In this document: positions 6,849-35,745 of the stretch, piece after piece
Position numbering within the stretch: the first letter of the stretch is position 1
Layout of the letters: each line of letters begins with the position of its first letter
DNA from: a virus
Lineage: Duplodnaviria > Heunggongvirae > Uroviricota > Caudoviricetes
Virus record (IMG/VR): IMGVR_UViG_2548876857_000008
Length of the DNA: 35,745 nucleotides
Direction: 5' to 3' (one strand)
The notes under the pieces: model-generated
Database searches by the model: none
Told to the model about the DNA's origin: nothing
What the model saw: the letters and a program-made list of their open reading frames with translations, nothing else
Made by a program: the position numbers and the translations under genes

Positions 6849-7084
6849 GCATGCATCTCCAGTGGTTGGACATGGCGGCTGATGTAGTGGTCAGAACAGG
6901 TGATGTTGCCTGGATCGTCCGGGCCGTTCAGCCCGGCAAACTCATCAACCAGAAATACGCTATATGCGGATAATCCCTGCTGACGCGGAACGCGGCGAAT
7001 AAACGTGCCGTGGTATGGAGTTGATTGGCCAAATGAGGGCGTAATCAGTACGCGCTGGCTGGGGGTTAAATCGGTAGGTTTCAT
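6845..7084 (-). CDS. hypothetical early protein
   Basis: 79 aa with AAGGAG 6 nt before the ATG at 7084. Confidence 0.45.
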   Translation of the reverse strand: MKPTDLTPSQRVLITPSFGQSTPYHGTFIRRVPRQQGLSAYSVFLVDEFAGLNGPDDPGNITCSDHYISRHVQPLEMHA

Positions 7085-7094
7085 TGCGCTCTCC

Positions 7095-7331
7095 TTAGTT
7101 AGGTTCGTGCAGGATGCCCGGCACGATCTCTTTGCCGATGGTGCGGGACAGCTCTTTCAGAATGCGAAACGTCAGCCGTCCACGCGGCAAATCCTGTTTA
7201 CCCGCCCAGCGATCAACAGCTTGCGTAACCGTCCGGGGTTCGTAGCCGGTACTGATGGCGAACTGGCGAAAGTTGCTGCCCTGCTCAATCAGTCGCGCGT
7301 GGATTTGGTGTTTGTTCATTAGTTTGTTCAT
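7095..7331 (-). CDS. ner: Ner/Nlp-family DNA-binding regulator
   Basis: 78 aa, first gene of the leftward early operon and divergent from the repressor. FRQFAISTGYEPRTVTQAVDR resembles the Ner/Nlp HTH. GAGGG precedes the ATG. Confidence 0.8.
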   Translation of the reverse strand: MNKLMNKHQIHARLIEQGSNFRQFAISTGYEPRTVTQAVDRWAGKQDLPRGRLTFRILKELSRTIGKEIVPGILHEPN

Positions 7332-7412
7332 TTGTTCCCTCTGAGCTATTATGTACTCAATTGGGTTTATTGTACGTACTCAAACGGGCAAGTCAACGAC
7401 TAATATGCACAA
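7332..7412. promoter_or_regulatory. divergent early/repressor control region with repeated GTAC-core elements
   Basis: 81-bp gap between divergent ner and repressor starts. GTACTCAA occurs at 7353-7360 and 7376-7383, with TGTAC at 7352 and 7371. A TAATAT -10-like hexamer lies at 7401-7406. Confidence 0.45.
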
Positions 7413-7823
7413 ATGAACATAAAAGAAAGACTCAAAAAAATACTCGCTGACAAAGCGTTATCAATCACTGATGCTGCCGCACAGTGCGATATCCCATATC
7501 GTTCTCTACAAAACTATCTGCGTGGCGAGCGAGAACCAAATGCGGAGGCATTGATCTCAATAGGTACCCATTTGGGTATAAATATTGATTGGCTGCTCAC
7601 CGGCAGAGGAGGAATGTATCTGTCTGAACATGCGGATGTTTTGACTGAGCAGCCGGAATACAGCCATGCCGATTTGAAGTTACTGGAATTTTTGAATCAG
7701 TTGGAACCGGATGTACGAAAGGATTTGTTACGCAGTGCTGAAGAAAAACAGCGAGTGGCCGCCCTAGAAAAAAGATTAGAGGAATTGGCTTTAGAACTCG
7801 AAAGCCTAAAACGTTCGGCGTAA
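7413..7823 (+). CDS. XRE-family HTH repressor (c/cI-like)
   Basis: N-terminal HTH (LSITDAAAQCDIPYRSLQNYLRGEREPNAEALISIGTHLGINIDWLL) and coiled-coil C-terminus. Divergent from ner. No S24 peptidase domain. Confidence 0.7.
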   Translation: MNIKERLKKILADKALSITDAAAQCDIPYRSLQNYLRGEREPNAEALISIGTHLGINIDWLLTGRGGMYLSEHADVLTEQPEYSHADLKLLEFLNQLEPDVRKDLLRSAEEKQRVAALEKRLEELALELESLKRSA

Positions 7824-7861
7824 AGTGTTCTCATTAAGAACAAAACATGAAGGACTATGTT

Positions 7862-8383
7862 ATGAAACACTTTTTCTTACCTTTGGGGGTTTGTGCGCTG
7901 TTGTTGTCGGGATGTGGTGATGACGATGTTACACAGCCATCTGCATCGACAATGTTTACTGTTGAAACCGATAGTCCGGTAGTGAAGCGCGAATTGCCCT
8001 TTATTCGCCAACAGTGTCCAGGACTGGATAAATACGCAGCAAACTTTGATAAATTTAAGGTCTACGACGACACGATGCGTCCGGTGACAACGGTGGAGTT
8101 TCACGTCAAGAATGAGAACAGCATACCCGGTAATTACACCGCCTCTGATCATACCTGTTTCCTTTTCATCTCCAACAATACCCACGAAGTGAAGATTTCA
8201 AAATCCGCCTGCCAGTCTGTTTGCTTCGATAAAGCGGATGTGCCTGGTGGGGATCTGGTTGTGAAACTGGATAAAGAAAGAGTTCCTATGACTGCTGATA
8301 AGAAGCCGCCGCGCGAGGGGTGCCTGATGGTTTACTCGCCAGAGCCAAACGGGGATTACTGGACGTGTCCAAGACAAGATTAA
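7862..8383 (+). CDS. lipoprotein (signal peptide with lipobox LLSGC)
   Basis: MKHFFLPLGVCALLLSGC then a Cys-rich mature part. AGGA lies 7 nt before the ATG at 7862. Begins 38 bp after the repressor stop. Confidence 0.7.
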   Translation: MKHFFLPLGVCALLLSGCGDDDVTQPSASTMFTVETDSPVVKRELPFIRQQCPGLDKYAANFDKFKVYDDTMRPVTTVEFHVKNENSIPGNYTASDHTCFLFISNNTHEVKISKSACQSVCFDKADVPGGDLVVKLDKERVPMTADKKPPREGCLMVYSPEPNGDYWTCPRQD

Positions 8384-8460
8384 ACATGTTGTAAACAAAA
8401 CAAAAAAGCGTGCAGACAGCACGCATTTACTATCTAACTCTACTGAAGGTTTCAGATTCT

Positions 8461-9492
8461 ATGCCAGCAAATGAACCTGCAAATGCAATCGTTGTAAATC
8501 ATGTGGTTATTCACCTTTTAGATAAAGAGCCGCATGGGGTGACATCCTTACAGCTTAGCCCAGCAGAGAGTGGCGTCACCGCAGCATCACAACGCTTAAT
8601 AGATGATATCTGTGGGAAATATGCAGGGCGAATGGGGAAAGGTTATGGCCATTTTGAAGATGACCCTGACAATTACCCGATGCAAACAATCGTATCAGAC
8701 TATTTAGCTCAAGAGCATCCTGATGATTTTTACCGTAGCTCCTGCCGCATGATTCGTCATCTGGAATCTCGGATTCAAACAACACCACTCGCTACTGGTG
8801 GCTATGTTCTATTCGCCCACATTACGATGAATCAACACGAGCATATTTTAGTTGCCATGTTAAGCCCCACGACGGGAACTGCGGTTAACGATGCCTTTGC
8901 TATCCAGGAAAGTGTCTACCTTGATATCGACAAGCTACGTGTGGCGGGGCGTATTGACATTACGTCCTGGCAATCAGGTGCCGAACGTTATATAAGTTTC
9001 CTGAAAGGGAGCAATGCTGTATCTGGTTACTTTAAGCAGTTCCTGGGCTGTAACGATGTTTTGATCGCCAAGCGTGAAACAGAGAAATTGCGGGATGCGT
9101 TGAAAGAGTTTGCGACTGAGCAAGGGCTTGACCCCGCACGTCGAGAGGCTTTTCTGCAAACGGCCCATGACCATTTGAAGCAACTGAGCAAAGATGGTGA
9201 GCCTGTAGATCTGACAACCTTTGTGAACGCAGTCTGGCCACAAGAACCAGAACTGCTATCGACTAAGCTGGCCAACCAAGAACTGGAACTGTCGGATGGT
9301 TTTGTCCCAGATGGACGCGTACTAAAAGGAATCATTTCCTTTAAAGGAAAGTCCAATCATTGGGAGCTAAAGTTTGATCGTGCTGGTCTTCAAGATGGTT
9401 CAATTGAGTATAATCGTGATCAGGATGTAATCATTCTAAGGAATATTCCTGATAGCTTCAGAGAAGAGATACTGGATGAGGTTGAGGAGTGA
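8461..9492 (+). CDS. NdpA/YejK-like nucleoid-associated protein homolog (NA37 family)
   Basis: GGYVLFAHITMNQHEHILVAMLS and YISFLKGSNAVSGYFKQFLGC closely parallel E. coli YejK ([23 protein letters not shown] and [23 protein letters not shown]). Length is about the same. The track start at 8410 is GTG; ATG at 8461. Confidence 0.7.
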   Translation: MPANEPANAIVVNHVVIHLLDKEPHGVTSLQLSPAESGVTAASQRLIDDICGKYAGRMGKGYGHFEDDPDNYPMQTIVSDYLAQEHPDDFYRSSCRMIRHLESRIQTTPLATGGYVLFAHITMNQHEHILVAMLSPTTGTAVNDAFAIQESVYLDIDKLRVAGRIDITSWQSGAERYISFLKGSNAVSGYFKQFLGCNDVLIAKRETEKLRDALKEFATEQGLDPARREAFLQTAHDHLKQLSKDGEPVDLTTFVNAVWPQEPELLSTKLANQELELSDGFVPDGRVLKGIISFKGKSNHWELKFDRAGLQDGSIEYNRDQDVIILRNIPDSFREEILDEVEE

Positions 9493-10697
9493 GTATCAGT
9501 TTTGAGCAACTGGTGGGATTGTACAGGCAGATTACTTTCGGTAACGATATGGCCGAAGGTACGCTGGTGCTTACCCCAGAATCCTGCGAGTTGCTCAACG
9601 CTTTGCTTGAGGACACCGATACATATGGGATCTCTCTGGCACAAGGTGAAGTAGTGGCTGGCCAGCAGGTGTCGCTTTTTGTGAACGCCCCAAAGACAAA
9701 GCTAGGTCTGCTATGCCGTAATTTGGCGGCTTTGTTAAAGTCGCCAAAACACCAAAGCGAGGAACCTTCCCGCTACTACCTGATCGACAGCCAATTTTAT
9801 AGTTCGGATGCGCCAACATCTGTAATTGAAAACTACCGCACTATCTTAACATTTCTGCGCCTGCTTAAAGAAAAGTCGGCATACTTTGATACCAGTGCAT
9901 ATGAATGCGTTTTTTTCCGCGCCGATGTATTTAAATTACCTATACGTTACAGTGCAGAAACCGTAGAAAATCTTGATAAAACGACACTCGATGAACTCAT
10001 TCAGCAGTTTTCTGACGACACACACAAAGAGCAGAAACTCTCGCTTTTAATTGAAAGCATCCAGTTAATCGGTCAGGAAACGGAAAACAATAAAGTCTTT
10101 GAGTATGCACTGAAGAACATTGATAAATTAAAAGTTGAGTTCGATAAGGGTTATCGCCTCTTCACTTCTGGGTTCTCATACGAAAAGGTTCTGGATGAAC
10201 TTAGAACCGCCAAAGTTGAAGAAATGGGACGTATCCATAAAGTCTTTTCAGATATCCAAAACCAGATACTGGGTATCCCAGTCGCAACCATTATCGTCGC
10301 GACACAAATCAAGAAAGCAAGTGGTGATGTCTATCAAACCATTATCAATAGCGCAGTTTTTTTAGGGGCCTTTGTTTTTGCTACGTTGGTTATGTTGACT
10401 TTGTTCAACCAGTTACAGACGTTAACTGCTATCAAAGAAGAACTTCGACATAAAAAGACTCAGGTTGATAAAAAGTATGCATCAATAAAAAATGACATTG
10501 ATAGTATCTTTTGCTCTGTACGTAAACGTCTTTGCCGTCAGGTTATCGCGTTCTGGTTTATTATTATGTTCCTTGTTGTCGCTATTATATCGACAGGATT
10601 AATTTACCTATACTGCACATACCCTGAAACATGGAATATCTTGGTTACAAAAGTGATGTCATGGCGGCATCACTTGAGTAATAAGCCCACTCCTTAA
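9489..10697 (+). CDS. hypothetical membrane protein (soluble N-domain of about 270 aa plus two C-terminal TM helices)
   Basis: GTG start overlaps the NdpA-like stop (GTGA). Hydrophobic helices IPVATIIVATQI...AVFLGAFVFATLVMLTLF and VIAFWFIIMFLVVAIISTGLIYLY. No enzymatic motif seen. Confidence 0.65.
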   Translation: MSISFEQLVGLYRQITFGNDMAEGTLVLTPESCELLNALLEDTDTYGISLAQGEVVAGQQVSLFVNAPKTKLGLLCRNLAALLKSPKHQSEEPSRYYLIDSQFYSSDAPTSVIENYRTILTFLRLLKEKSAYFDTSAYECVFFRADVFKLPIRYSAETVENLDKTTLDELIQQFSDDTHKEQKLSLLIESIQLIGQETENNKVFEYALKNIDKLKVEFDKGYRLFTSGFSYEKVLDELRTAKVEEMGRIHKVFSDIQNQILGIPVATIIVATQIKKASGDVYQTIINSAVFLGAFVFATLVMLTLFNQLQTLTAIKEELRHKKTQVDKKYASIKNDIDSIFCSVRKRLCRQVIAFWFIIMFLVVAIISTGLIYLYCTYPETWNILVTKVMSWRHHLSNKPTP

Positions 10698-10758
10698 ACC
10701 CCTTTAAAAGCCTTCCTGCCTACCATTCCGCACACTGCCTCCATCACCCAATGGAGGC
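10693..10758 (+). promoter_or_regulatory. candidate late promoter element (dyad motif plus start-site hairpin) before the lysis genes
   Basis: CTTAAACCCCTTTAAAAGCC at 10693-10712. Perfect 8-bp hairpin GCCTCCAT/ATGGAGGC at 10737-10758 contains the GGAGG site and the first ATG. Confidence 0.45.
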
Positions 10759-10762
10759 ACTT

Positions 10763-11053
10763 ATGAAAACTTCTCTTTTCCCGCGTTTATCCGGCTGGCT
10801 GGTGGCATCGGTGGTGTTGTTCGCGCTGATTGCGCTGATTTCCCCGCAGCAGCTTCCGGTCGTTGTTTACAAACTGAGCCTGATCTCGCTGGCGGCGGTG
10901 CTGGGCTACTGGCTGGATCGCAGCCTGTTTCCCTATGCGCGGCCAAATTATTTTCAGTCAGCGGAAAATGAACAACGTCTCTTTGCCGCCGCCATGCTGC
11001 GCCGTGCGGTGATTGTCGCGGCGGTGTGTCTGGCCGTGGCGATGGGGCTGTAG
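10763..11053 (+). CDS. putative holin or lysis membrane protein
   Basis: 97 aa with two or three hydrophobic helices, immediately before the transglycosylase gene. ATG at 10763 has GGAGG 5 nt upstream; ATG at 10751 is an alternative. Confidence 0.4.
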   Translation: MKTSLFPRLSGWLVASVVLFALIALISPQQLPVVVYKLSLISLAAVLGYWLDRSLFPYARPNYFQSAENEQRLFAAAMLRRAVIVAAVCLAVAMGL

Positions 11054-11055
11054 CC

Positions 11056-11790
11056 ATGACGCTGCATATGTACTGGCCGCAGGTTGTCTGGTCTGTGACG
11101 GCGCTGCTGGGGATGGGAATGGCGCTGGCGCGTCACGGGCAACCGCGCACCGATAAACACAATTTCTGGTACCAGTCGCTGGCGGTACTGATTGCAGGCT
11201 GGCTGCTCTGGTGCGGCGGTTTTTTTAGCCAGGCCAATGCCGCCGAACCGCCCGCTTCCGCCAAACCTTACCGCGCCGAACTGGTGCGTAATGCCCGCGC
11301 GGTATGGGGGATGGATGCGCCTGTCGCCGATTTCGCCGGGCAGTTCCAGCAGGAATCCGACTGGAATCCCGCCGCCCGTTCACCCGTTGGTGCGCAGGGG
11401 ATGGCGCAGTTTATGCCCTCCACTAGCGACTGGATCAGCCAACTGCTTCCCGAACTCCGCGCCCGAGAGCCGTTTAACCCGTCGTGGGCCATCCGGGCGC
11501 TGGTGCAATACGACCAGTGGTTGTGGCAGCGCGTCAGCGCCCGCGATGGTTGCCAGCGAATGGCATTCACCTTAAGCGCCTATAACGGCGGTTTAGGCTG
11601 GGTGAACCGCGATAAAAAGCTGGCGGCGCAGCGCGGGCTGGATGCCGCCGTCTGGTTTGACGCGGTGGCGACGGTCAACGCCGGGCGCAGCGCCGCCAAC
11701 TGGCGCGAGAACCGGGGTTATCCGCAACGCATCCTGTACCAGAACGCGCCGCGCTATCTGTCATGGGGAGGGGCTAACTGTGTTCGATAA
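11056..11790 (+). CDS. endolysin, lytic transglycosylase (SLT domain) with N-terminal hydrophobic segment(s)
   Basis: SLT signature QQESDWNPAARSPVGAQGMAQFMPST (catalytic Glu, AQGxMQ). N-terminus VVWSVTALLGMGMALA and LAVLIAGWLLWCGGFFSQANA suggests a signal-anchor or signal peptide. Confidence 0.75.
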   Translation: MTLHMYWPQVVWSVTALLGMGMALARHGQPRTDKHNFWYQSLAVLIAGWLLWCGGFFSQANAAEPPASAKPYRAELVRNARAVWGMDAPVADFAGQFQQESDWNPAARSPVGAQGMAQFMPSTSDWISQLLPELRAREPFNPSWAIRALVQYDQWLWQRVSARDGCQRMAFTLSAYNGGLGWVNRDKKLAAQRGLDAAVWFDAVATVNAGRSAANWRENRGYPQRILYQNAPRYLSWGGANCVR

Positions 11791-12986: not shown

Positions 12987-13543
12987 TGGCCAGACGCAGC
13001 ACCATTGACAAACTCCCCGAAGAGGTCAGGCGCTGGCTGGAGCGGGCGCTGACCGACAGCGGCTTCAGCGGTTATGCCGAACTGGAAGCGCTGATGCGTG
13101 AGAAGGGCTTCCTTATCAGCAAGTCAGCCATTCATCGCTACGGCCAGAAAATCGAACGTCGTTTTACCGCCATCCGCGCAGCCACCGAAGCGGCGCGGAT
13201 GCTGACCGAGGGAGCCGCCGACGATCAGGACGCCCGTTCGGAGGCGGTGATTGCGCTGATCCAGACTGAATTGTTTGAGTCCATTGTCCAGTTACAGGAG
13301 GCGGAGGACGGCGAGATTGATCCGCAGGAGCGTGTGGCACTGCTATCGAAGGTGGCGAAGAACGTCGCCACGCTGTCACGCGCCAGCGTCAACCTGAAGA
13401 AGTTTCAGGCTGATATCCGTCGTGAGGCTCGTGAAGAGCTACAGCGCGAACAAGCTGCGGCACTGGAGAAAGAAGCCAAGGCGCAGGGGCTGGGTGAAGA
13501 TCAGGTGCGCTTCTGGCGTGAGAAGATTTTGGGGATTCGATGA
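12983..13543 (+). CDS. putative terminase small subunit (Mu gp27-like)
   Basis: 186 aa, directly upstream of the large terminase; helical and charged. Confidence 0.5.
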   Translation: MMARRSTIDKLPEEVRRWLERALTDSGFSGYAELEALMREKGFLISKSAIHRYGQKIERRFTAIRAATEAARMLTEGAADDQDARSEAVIALIQTELFESIVQLQEAEDGEIDPQERVALLSKVAKNVATLSRASVNLKKFQADIRREAREELQREQAAALEKEAKAQGLGEDQVRFWREKILGIR

Positions 13544-15147
13544 AACCTTTAAGCAGCACCGTCCGTATTGTTGACTGGGAGGAACTGCCGCCCAGAGCCA
13601 GAGATATTCCGGCTGGTTTTAACCCAATGACCGACGGCGTTCTGATGAAACATCAGGTGGATGTCCTGAAAATCAGAAAGTCGATTCTCGCTGTGCCTAA
13701 AGGCCGTCGAACTGGCATCACCTTTGCCTTTGGCTTTGAAGCTGTCCTGACCGCAGCCGCCCGGAAAAGCAGCGGAGGTATGGACGTTTACTACATCGGC
13801 GATACCAAAGAGAAAGGTCTGGAGTTTATCGGTTACTGCGCCAAATTCTCTCGTGTTATTGCCGAACAACAGGCGGATTCTGTCTCCAGCATTGAAGAGT
13901 TCTTGTTTGACGATCAGGACGAGGATGGCAACACCCGCAAAATCACCGCCTATCGTGTCCGCTATGCGTCAGGTTTTCAGACTGTCGCACTATCATCCCG
14001 TCCTGCGAATATTCGTGGTTTGCAAGGGATGGTGATCATAGACGAAGCTGCGTTCCATCAGGATGTTCAAGGGGTACTGGACGCGGCAACGGCACTTCTC
14101 ATCTGGGGGGGTAGGATTGTGGTGATCTCCTCGCATAAAGGAAAATCGAACCGCTTCAACGCCTTTATTATTGATATTGAAAACGGCTTATACGGCGAGG
14201 ATGCAGCGGTTTATACCGTGACTTTCGATGATGCTGTAGCTAACGGGCTGTACGAGCGCGTCTGTTTTATGCAGGGCGAAGAACCTACGCTGGAGGGGAA
14301 AACCGCCTGGTACAGTCGCATCCGTAATGCCTATGGCCCGCGTAAAGCCGCCATGCGCGAGGAACTGGACGCGATCCCCCGCGACGGCAATGGCATCTGT
14401 ATTCCTGGGATCTGGATAGAAGCCGCGATGCCGCCGGGAGACGACCGGACAATACTGCGGCTGACGCTGGATGAGGGTTTCACGGCGAAATCCAGGAAGG
14501 AGCGCGAAGAGTACGTCACCGACTGGATCATGCGTTATCTGGAGCCGGTGATCGCCGGGCTTGATATCAGCCTGCGTTATGCAATGGGGGATGACTTTGC
14601 CCGCCACCGCGATTTTTCCGCCATTGTGCTGATGGCCATCATGCCCAACCTGTACCGCCGCGTGCCGCTGATTATTGAAATGCACAAGGTTCCCACCCGC
14701 CAACAGGAGCAAATCCTGTGGTATCTGCTGCGCGCTCTGCGGTGTTTTTCCGGGGCGATGGATGCCACCGGGCCGGGGCAGACGCTGGCAGAGTATACCG
14801 CCGATGAGTTCGGCACCAGCCGTATCGCGCAGGTTAACCTTAGTCGTTCCTGGTATGGGTTGTGGATGCCAAAGCTGATTCAGGCATTTGAAGATGGCGT
14901 GCTGACATTACCAGCGGATGAGAACGTGCGGCAGGATCTGCATTCCGTCGAGGATATTGACGGTATTCCGATGGTTTCCTCGGTGCGTAAAGAAGACCTT
15001 AAAGACCCGGAGCTGTTCCGCCACGGCGATACGGCTATTGCGCTGGCGCTGGCATGGTTTGCATCTGTCGCCATACATACCGGCCCGGTGACGGTGAACT
15101 CCCGCCGCCGTCGCCAGTCCGCACGATTACTGGAGAACTATCACTGA
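13540..15147 (+). CDS. terminase large subunit (Mu gp28-like)
   Basis: 535 aa between the small-terminase-like and portal genes; P-loop-like PKGRRTGITF and acidic motif VIIDEAAF. Confidence 0.75.
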   Translation: MKPLSSTVRIVDWEELPPRARDIPAGFNPMTDGVLMKHQVDVLKIRKSILAVPKGRRTGITFAFGFEAVLTAAARKSSGGMDVYYIGDTKEKGLEFIGYCAKFSRVIAEQQADSVSSIEEFLFDDQDEDGNTRKITAYRVRYASGFQTVALSSRPANIRGLQGMVIIDEAAFHQDVQGVLDAATALLIWGGRIVVISSHKGKSNRFNAFIIDIENGLYGEDAAVYTVTFDDAVANGLYERVCFMQGEEPTLEGKTAWYSRIRNAYGPRKAAMREELDAIPRDGNGICIPGIWIEAAMPPGDDRTILRLTLDEGFTAKSRKEREEYVTDWIMRYLEPVIAGLDISLRYAMGDDFARHRDFSAIVLMAIMPNLYRRVPLIIEMHKVPTRQQEQILWYLLRALRCFSGAMDATGPGQTLAEYTADEFGTSRIAQVNLSRSWYGLWMPKLIQAFEDGVLTLPADENVRQDLHSVEDIDGIPMVSSVRKEDLKDPELFRHGDTAIALALAWFASVAIHTGPVTVNSRRRRQSARLLENYH

Positions 15148-34971: not shown

Positions 34972-35745
34972 ATGAAAACATTACCCATTATTCCGTGGCC
35001 CGGCGGTAAGCGTCGTCTGGCCAAAAAGTTATTACCGTTATTTCCTGAGCACCAGTGTTATGTAGAGCCATTCTGCGGCGGTGCAGCCTTGTATTTCATG
35101 AAGGAGCCGGTTGAAGCTGAAGTCCTGAACGATATCAACGGCGAACTGGTGAATCTGTACCGTGTGGTTAAAAATCATCTTGAAGAGTTTGTGCGCCAGT
35201 TCAAGTGGGCGTTGAGCAGCAGGCAGATTTTTGAATGGTCGAAAATGACCATCCCGGAGACGCTAACTGATATTCAGCGTGCAGCGCGGTTTTATTATCT
35301 CCAGAAGCAATCATTCGGAGGGAAAGTGGAATCACAGACGTATGGAACGGCGACCACTTCTGCACCACGGCTTAATCTGCTAAGGCTGGAAGAGGAGTTG
35401 AGCGCCGCCCATTTGCGGCTATCACGCACGTTTGTAGAACATTTACCGTGGCGTACCTGCATTGAGAAGTATGATCGCCCGCACACACTGTTCTATTGCG
35501 ATCCCCCGTATTGGGGAACGGAGGGCTACGGTGTTGAATTTGGACTGGAGCAGTACACCCAACTTGCAGAGTTGGCCAGAACGATAAAAGGCAGGATGTT
35601 GATCAGTGTGAACGATATCCCGGAGATGCGTGAAACCTTTGCGGACTTGTCGATTGATACGGTAGATATTCGCTATACGTTGAGCGGTGGGCCTAATGCT
35701 AATCGCTCGAAAGTCAGCCGTGAGCTGGTCATTCGTAACTGGTAA
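34972..35745 (+). CDS. DNA N6-adenine methyltransferase, Dam-like (D12 class)
   Basis: N-terminal PWPGGKRRL (AdoMet-binding motif I) and catalytic DPPY (CDPPYWGTEGYG). Complete ORF; its TAA ends at the window edge. Confidence 0.85.
   Translation: MKTLPIIPWPGGKRRLAKKLLPLFPEHQCYVEPFCGGAALYFMKEPVEAEVLNDINGELVNLYRVVKNHLEEFVRQFKWALSSRQIFEWSKMTIPETLTDIQRAARFYYLQKQSFGGKVESQTYGTATTSAPRLNLLRLEEELSAAHLRLSRTFVEHLPWRTCIEKYDRPHTLFYCDPPYWGTEGYGVEFGLEQYTQLAELARTIKGRMLISVNDIPEMRETFADLSIDTVDIRYTLSGGPNANRSKVSRELVIRNW

Follow-up and report, generated by a model that had tools for sequence, protein, structure and literature searches.

Two described anti-phage systems provide the closest comparison for the locus analyzed here. 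PANGU systems are made of YejK-like proteins paired with effectors, and in their type II a sensor, Pag2A, and a transmembrane effector, Pag2B, are encoded bicistronically with a gap of <40 bp (bioRxiv 10.64898/2026.04.06.716658, April 2026). Pag2B consists of an acidic N-terminal 'DNA-mimic' domain, which binds Pag2A with a dissociation constant (KD) of 19 nM, and a C-terminal transmembrane domain; both genes are required and neither is toxic alone, the phenotype is abortive infection, and phage T4 escapes by inactivating endonuclease II (EndoII) (bioRxiv 10.64898/2026.04.06.716658). The class is widespread and horizontally mobile, and its systems were chosen by defence-island linkage; upon infection, the sensor tagged with green fluorescent protein (GFP) leaves the nucleoid (bioRxiv 10.64898/2026.04.06.716658). 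The second system, DS-1 (DefensePredictor system 1), is an experimentally validated anti-phage system of E. coli, in which a 391-amino-acid (aa) YejK-domain protein, DS-1A (WP_000355468.1), is followed by a 404-aa hypothetical protein, DS-1B (WP_000150292.1); in the initial screen (Table S7 of that report), plating of Bas1 was reduced by ~7.6 logs, with smaller effects on Bas26, Bas3, T3 and T5 (PMC13092281). Here, we have analyzed a stretch of 35,745 nucleotides from a virus of the Caudoviricetes (IMG/VR record IMGVR_UViG_2548876857_000008), hereafter the window, in which an NA37/YejK-family gene is directly followed by a second, overlapping gene (Table 1). We propose that these two genes probably form a self-contained two-gene anti-phage cassette, or moron, composed of a sensor and a membrane effector. 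Since this kind of system has already been described, as DS-1 (2025-26) and type II PANGU (2026), the pair represents a divergent subfamily and no new category.

The upstream gene encodes a real, full-length NA37/YejK-family protein, and the match is far beyond chance. The protein covers profile positions 1-324 of the 325 in Pfam NA37 (PF04245) with an E-value of 5.3e-74 and 250 bits (cut-off 24.6), is 27% identical to E. coli K-12 YejK over 330 aa (BLASTP, 117 bits, E 9e-35) and matches the YejK structure chain 9be2_A (phmmer, E 4.7e-30). An alternative, longer GTG start is present at 8410, and the homologues at two related loci (L003 and L007) are annotated as 343 aa long. When an AlphaFold2 model built with 54 homologues (predicted local distance difference test score, pLDDT, 88.5) was compared with the PDB, 9be2 was its sole significant neighbour (Foldseek, E 3.6e-20, 334 aligned columns), and the template modelling score of 0.53 suggests that the relative placement of the two domains differs in the model. 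Both profile and fold therefore bear out the homology to the nucleoid-associated protein YejK/NdpA that had been read from the sequence alone (the original prediction), and the gene is indeed phage-borne, as it lies in a Mu-like transposable prophage.

With E. coli YejK the window protein shares the two-domain fold over its full length, an acidic overall character and, approximately, the basic cluster of the C domain. It differs in its low identity and in scoring 189 bits with the YejK equivalog model NF001557, below the cut-off of 341 (E. coli YejK scores 554 bits). Its gene also differs in being accessory, low in GC content, operonic with a putative effector gene and additional to the host's own yejK. 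A further difference concerns the residues involved in DNA binding. Two pore-lining basic triads of YejK, R173/R176/K177 and R276/R280/K284, are needed for DNA binding, and mutating the N-domain triad abolishes it (PMC11229321). The C-domain triad is shifted yet roughly kept in the window protein (R286/K289/K295), whereas the N-domain triad is replaced by S184/N185/A186 and accompanied by a 2-aa deletion. Across the clade of paired NA37 proteins described below, these three N-domain positions are occupied by R/Q/S, G/N and E/D/S.

The start codon of the downstream gene overlaps the NA37 stop codon, and the two genes are translationally coupled through this overlap. The partner protein had no Pfam family when the window proteins were searched, and in PHROGs it belongs to phrog_5023 (E 8.5e-87), which is filed under 'unknown function'. 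Its AlphaFold2 model (pLDDT 83.8) comprises an N-terminal alpha/beta region (residues 1-175), a helical region (180-260) and two very long C-terminal helices; the acidic N-terminal part (residues 1-255, alpha/beta plus helical) carries a net charge of -11, as do residues 1-248, the median of the partner family being -10. Between the two parts, on a short helix, lies the invariant motif QNxxLGIPVAxxxxxTQ (residues 257-273), the most conserved element of the family. Hydrophobic stretches at ~283-309 and ~346-380, within the long helices, are the only strong hydropathy peaks. On the basis of hydropathy, charge and the model, the partner is predicted to be a membrane protein with C-terminal transmembrane helices and a cytoplasmic acidic part. 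The best Foldseek matches of the model (the alpha-pore-forming toxins AhlB/SmhB, MukF and SMC-like proteins), at E ~0.5, were set aside as noise and are at most a lead. With 1,243 clusters at 50% identity (E ≤ 0.001), of which 367 had E ≤ 1e-30, the partner family is large.

The two genes proved to be strictly paired. A genome scan with one genome per species yielded 71 loci encoding a relative of the partner, spread over alpha-, beta- and gamma-proteobacteria. At 64 of them the partner was nearly full-length and the sequence upstream was available, and every one of these 64 had an NA37 gene immediately upstream on the same strand. Of the remaining seven, two lay at contig edges, three were truncated remnants and two were short partial matches. 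The inferred junctions between the two genes ranged from -20 to +16 nt at 59 related loci. Moreover, the pairwise identities of NA37 and partner proteins were strongly correlated (r = 0.92 for 60 non-redundant pairs; Mantel 0/999), a co-divergence at the sequence level that is compatible with an interaction between the two proteins and is no proof of one. A locus type in Cupriavidus (L074-L076) was considered as a possible combination of the partner with a different sensor, which was rejected. At ~8004-8630 these loci retain only the C-terminal half of a partner homologue (43% identity, query residues 185-379), next to an unrelated nitrilase-family gene and without NA37; they occur on a plasmid as well as on chromosomal contigs and represent a decayed remnant of the cassette.

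Mobile NA37 genes fall into two kinds, standalone and paired with a membrane-protein gene. Among phage genomes, NA37 was found in 43 records and the partner in just 7, always adjoining NA37; among plasmids, the corresponding numbers were 219 and just 8. With 43 phage records and a PHROG of its own (phrog_3767, matched by the window protein at E 5e-101), a phage-borne NA37 gene is not unusual, a point that the original prediction had overstated. In a neighbour-joining tree rooted on DS-1A, the paired NA37 proteins formed their own clade of 60 terminals, from which YejK, Pnd of plasmid pCAR1, p13 of phage F116 and the protein of Klebsiella phage P7641 were excluded, and members of this clade are 26-29% identical to YejK and Pnd.

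This distinction bears on the possibility that the window protein is a nucleoid protein of the Pnd/NdpA type, which coats or silences DNA or tunes host or prophage transcription or Mu-type transposition, with an unrelated gene downstream. The fold is one known from a DNA clamp, Pseudomonas plasmids (the 219 plasmid records include Pnd) and F116-like phages commonly carry NA37 as a standalone gene, and Mu-type transposition employs host nucleoid proteins. Like Pnd and F116 p13, the window protein is an NA37-family protein on a mobile element. However, Pnd and F116 p13, which are 77% identical to each other and each 33-36% identical to YejK, are standalone, have no partner gene and keep the YejK basic patch (KG[KR]xGRK), whereas the window protein is just 26-29% identical to them, has lost this patch and belongs to a separate, pair-only clade. 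Within this clade NA37 never occurs alone at informative loci, and its reading frame overlaps or nearly abuts that of a co-diverging partner. In addition, most related Mu-like prophages lack the gene: 341 E. coli genomes match the prophage backbone, and an NA37-type gene was present in 3 of the 15 listed. The pair also occurs in prophages that are not transposable. We therefore regard a Pnd-type role as quite improbable. The analogy with Pnd drawn in the original prediction is not supported, and its suggestions of foreign-DNA silencing and nucleoid remodelling found no specific support.

A direct comparison of sequences was possible for DS-1, for which DS-1A and DS-1B were taken from Table S8 of the original report (PMC13092281). 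The partner is demonstrably homologous to DS-1B by sequence: it matches the NCBIfam model DS1_2_antiphage (NF053869) with E 8.3e-21, it is 25% identical to DS-1B over 214 aa (BLASTP, E 4e-9), and the profile of the partner family aligns with DS-1B over 264 columns with 95.9% probability (hhalign). The two proteins share the motifs D-x-HK, FS-x-x-K-[IV]-L-[DN]-EL and Q-x-x-x-L-x-IP-x-A; both are ~400 aa long and have C-terminal hydrophobic helices, and the acidic N-terminal part of DS-1B has a net charge of -9. The overall organization is similar as well, with the NA37 gene first, comparable sizes (343 + 402 aa in the window and 391 + 404 aa in DS-1) and a tight junction (a 4-bp overlap and a 2-bp gap, respectively). 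On the other hand, identity is just 23-25%, the window NA37 protein being 23% identical to DS-1A (E 5e-11) and nearer to YejK than to DS-1A (117 and 49 bits, respectively), and the window pair, in contrast to DS-1, is prophage-borne.

Compared by description only, the pair also matches type II PANGU feature for feature. A YejK-like protein and a putative effector are encoded in one operon, the overlap of the two genes falls within the <40-bp gap, and the partner, like Pag2B, has an acidic N-terminal part and C-terminal hydrophobic helices. Two differences are that the window copy is prophage cargo without adjacent defence genes and that the N-domain basic triad of YejK has been lost in its clade, so that the mode of DNA binding may differ. 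The sensing logic proposed for type II PANGU, in which damage to the nucleoid frees the sensor, is the best available model for the pair. By this analogy, the most likely function of the pair would be abortive-infection defence expressed from the prophage, with the NA37 protein as a proposed cytoplasmic sensor subunit of the PagA/DS-1A type. In a healthy lysogen, an NA37 dimer would be held on the nucleoid, as suggested by type II PANGU and DS-1. A superinfecting phage that degrades or remodels host DNA would release the sensor, and the freed sensor would bind the acidic N-terminal part of the partner. Docking might then switch on the membrane-helix module of the partner and damage membrane integrity, so that the infected cell would cease to support phage growth, and sister lysogens and the prophage would be protected. 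Damage to the membrane is suggested here by the hydrophobic helices of the partner and by the analogy with type II PANGU. The original prediction had offered three functions, and the one favoured by the coupled and conserved membrane-protein gene, the homology to DS-1B and the PANGU-like architecture is that of a DNA-sensing member of a defence pair. The prediction as a whole is partly supported: the YejK homologue on a prophage and the idea of a defence pair hold up, whereas the analogy with Pnd and the silencing role are unsupported or overstated.

Several observations weigh against this proposal. First, nucleoid binding by the window NA37 protein should not be assumed, because the basic N-domain triad of YejK is not conserved in the paired clade. 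Second, the likeness to type II PANGU is one of described architecture. Third, both proteins score below the NCBIfam equivalog cut-offs for DS-1 (66.4 vs 330 bits for the NA37 protein and 74.5 vs 315 bits for the partner), and the window pair is therefore a related but distinct subfamily. It should be noted that the NA37 match to DS1_1_antiphage (NF053868) was rejected as evidence for a relationship with DS-1 and carries no information, as E. coli YejK itself scores 81 bits. Fourth, the window NA37 protein lacks the ~40-aa N-terminal Cys-rich CxxC...CxxC segment of DS-1A; it begins with MPANEPANAIVVNH, and the residues that precede its NA37 domain include no cysteine. Finally, the partner model had no significant fold relative in the PDB or BFVD (Foldseek), the PADLOC 2023 models gave no meaningful match to either protein of the pair, and no further defence gene adjoins the pair within the window.

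The loss of the triad may also be read in another way, namely that NA37 proteins of the paired clade no longer act as DNA clamps of the YejK type and that the sensor responds to something other than bulk nucleoid integrity, for example to a protein of the phage, to a DNA end or to a change in topology. The sequence pattern, in which a triad essential in YejK is lost while the partner keeps its acidic N-terminal part, would agree with such a change, which we nevertheless consider unlikely. Mu-type replicative transposition fragments and rearranges the host chromosome. The Mu-like copy would also have to stay silent during the replicative transposition of its own phage, which would imply a built-in discrimination between self and rival.

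The degraded DNA-binding patch weakens the nucleoid-release model, and the partner is a predicted membrane protein without a known fold; in addition, the prophage lipoprotein gene next to the pair suggests that envelope-acting cargo is gathered at this site. These points would favour a different defence or exclusion logic, such as superinfection exclusion through an NA37-controlled block of DNA entry, or a toxin-antitoxin-like addiction pair in which NA37 restrains a toxic partner. However, the genes of type II PANGU are non-toxic singly and are both required, PANGU escape mutations hit a phage nuclease that acts after DNA entry, and a conserved acidic cytoplasmic part fits docking of a sensor better than a periplasmic or entry-blocking role. 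Such a logic therefore seems rather unlikely, and a sensor-effector cassette remains our preferred explanation.

Further support for an accessory cassette comes from its distribution. In Mu-like prophages of Pectobacterium, Brenneria, Mixta, Chitinimonas and Jeongeupia, the pair is located between the early and the lysis genes. In E. coli prophages of the lambdoid type (L083-L087), a 53%-identical pair at 7001-9203 lies between the antiterminator Q and holin genes, a typical site for morons, and is transcribed antisense to the surrounding phage genes; the NA37 protein of this type is listed in 128 blocks of the collection, which probably makes this cassette the most frequent form of the family in E. 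coli. The pair was also found in Sinorhizobium phage phi2LM21, in Klebsiella phages Kp4865-4 and P7641 and in uncultured gut phages. At most genome loci with the pair, no similarity to the genes of the window phage was detected. A census of 130 flanking open reading frames at other chromosomal loci revealed integrases, antiterminator Q, DUF968 and methylases, as well as a descriptive list of defence neighbours (Type III restriction enzymes, GmrSD, HamB, AriA-like, Old, SLATT_6 and PIN_8). Thus, the pair behaves as cargo in variable slots of unrelated prophages. As a separate observation, Jeongeupia wiesaeckerbachi (NZ_CP136946.1) carries two related Mu-like prophage copies (L025 and L026) at two chromosomal sites, each with the pair; all measured protein identities to the window are equal for the two copies, which is consistent with recent transposition of the phage.

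The same behaviour can be seen within the lineage of the window, which is an essentially complete Mu-like transposable prophage of Salmonella/E. coli. Comparison with E. coli relatives placed the pair in a variable slot between the repressor and the holin genes. This slot contains the lipoprotein gene and the pair in the window and in L007, the pair and a DNA adenine methylase (Dam) gene without the lipoprotein gene in L005, where the Dam gene lies in reverse orientation between pair and holin, and the lipoprotein and Dam genes in L006, an arrangement shared by 12 of the 15 E. coli records listed. Among public sequences, the nearest copies are a prophage of Salmonella enterica (L003, with 96% identity for NA37 and 92% for the partner) and two E. 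coli chromosomes (94% DNA identity). A megablast search of the cargo region against phage genomes gave nothing, and the prophage backbone has relatives just 77% identical that cover 16-17% of the query.

The position of the pair next to the lysis cassette in the window, next to a holin gene in lambdoid-type prophages and near an endolysin gene in P7641 raises the question of whether it serves lysis itself, with the partner as a lysis regulator (an antiholin, a releasin or a timing factor) and NA37 as its cytoplasmic regulator. Several findings speak against such a role: the pair is opposite in direction to the lysis genes in lambdoid-type prophages and in P7641, the reverse Dam gene parts it from the holin gene in L005, most relatives of this phage lyse without it, and most loci share no detected similarity with this phage, some of them carrying restriction or other defence genes. 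Furthermore, slots flanking the lysis cassette are classic insertion sites for morons. A lysis-linked function is thus very improbable. The coordinates of the pair and of the features around it are given in Table 1.

Table 1. Location of the two-gene cassette and surrounding features in the window
Feature	Position	Strand	Remarks
HTH_3/CI-type repressor gene	7413-7823	+	
Lipoprotein gene	7862-8383	+	173 aa; predicted lipoprotein; MKHFFLPLGVCALLLSGC, lipobox LSGC
Hairpin GCGTGC-AGACA-GCACGC	8408-8424		GC-rich; between lipoprotein gene and NA37 gene; from terminator-like scan
NA37/YejK-family gene	8461-9492	+	ATG start at 8461, TGA ends 9492; 343 aa; isoelectric point 5.0
GTGA overlap of NA37 stop and partner start	9489-9492	+	4 bp; read from sequence; GAGG 9-12 nt upstream
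Partner gene, proposed membrane effector (DS-1B/Pag2B-like)	9489-10697	+	GTG start; 402 aa
Holin gene	10751-11053	+	
SLT endolysin gene	11026-11790	+	
Low-GC stretch	7400-10700		42-47% GC vs 56-62% in both flanks; repressor, lipoprotein gene and pair
Variable cargo slot of the prophage lineage	repressor end 7823 to holin start 10751		from comparison with E. coli relatives

The Mu-like nature of the window is evident from genes for Mor, GemA, a MuB-like AAA protein, an rve transposase, a Mu-type portal, Mu F and homologues of gp27, gp36 and gp37. Mor, GemA, the MuB-like protein and the transposase are encoded on the minus strand left of 7331, together with a DUF3102 protein and small helix-turn-helix (HTH) proteins, and the plus strand past the lysis genes carries the Mu-type gp27, terminase, portal, Mu F and the head and tail genes.

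With regard to expression, the pair is co-oriented with the repressor gene and lies downstream of it, and in lysogens transcription from the repressor promoter could plausibly read through into the pair. Such read-through is not general, because lambdoid-type prophages carry the cassette antisense to the phage genes. The hairpin upstream of NA37 has a better T-run on the minus strand (TTTTTTGTTT) than on the plus strand, and no minus-strand gene ends there; it is a possible candidate for a weak or bidirectional terminator that separates transcription units. In the promoter scan, sites were no more numerous than in shuffled sequence, and none was assigned to the pair. The support for the repressor-operon control that had been suggested for this gene is positional, with the hairpin lying in between, and the antisense copies in lambdoid-type prophages show that such control is not general for the cassette. 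The best sigma-70-like site of the region, TTGACT-16-TACAAT (10/12), is located on the minus strand (7396-7369), where it faces the minus-strand early operon between a Ner-like gene (7095-7331) and the repressor gene, and likely marks the early promoter and operator region.

Some other features of the prophage were observed. The lipoprotein gene varies independently of the pair, being present in L006 without the pair (66% identity) and absent in L005; its product has a sole PHROG match, phrog_10002 (unknown function), and could represent an independent moron that acts on the envelope, for instance in superinfection exclusion. At the right prophage end, a Dam gene on the plus strand (34972-35745; phrog_56, E 5e-97) runs past the end of the window. 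Homologues of this methylase in E. coli, Brenneria and Mixta (71-73% identical) are found in reverse orientation in the repressor-holin slot, where they adjoin the NA37 pair or replace it, and we therefore consider this to be one cargo gene whose location varies among related phages. The open reading frame in the place of the large terminase (13540-15147, plus strand) is just 27% identical to its counterpart in the Salmonella prophage L003, the rest of which is 80-95% identical; this sequence pattern indicates that the packaging gene has been replaced mosaically.

Current annotation pipelines would miss the pair, because the PHROG of the partner is without assigned function, the PADLOC 2023 models are blind to it and the DS-1 thresholds of NCBI are not reached. 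It was only in 2025-26 that defence systems based on nucleoid-associated proteins were described. The loss of the DNA-binding triad provides a concrete test of the nucleoid-release model in this clade, for which the present locus would be a good experimental handle. The pair represents a large and distinct subfamily that travels as a compact cassette and, if it acts as proposed, would add to the immunity that prophages confer on Salmonella, E. coli and many other Proteobacteria.

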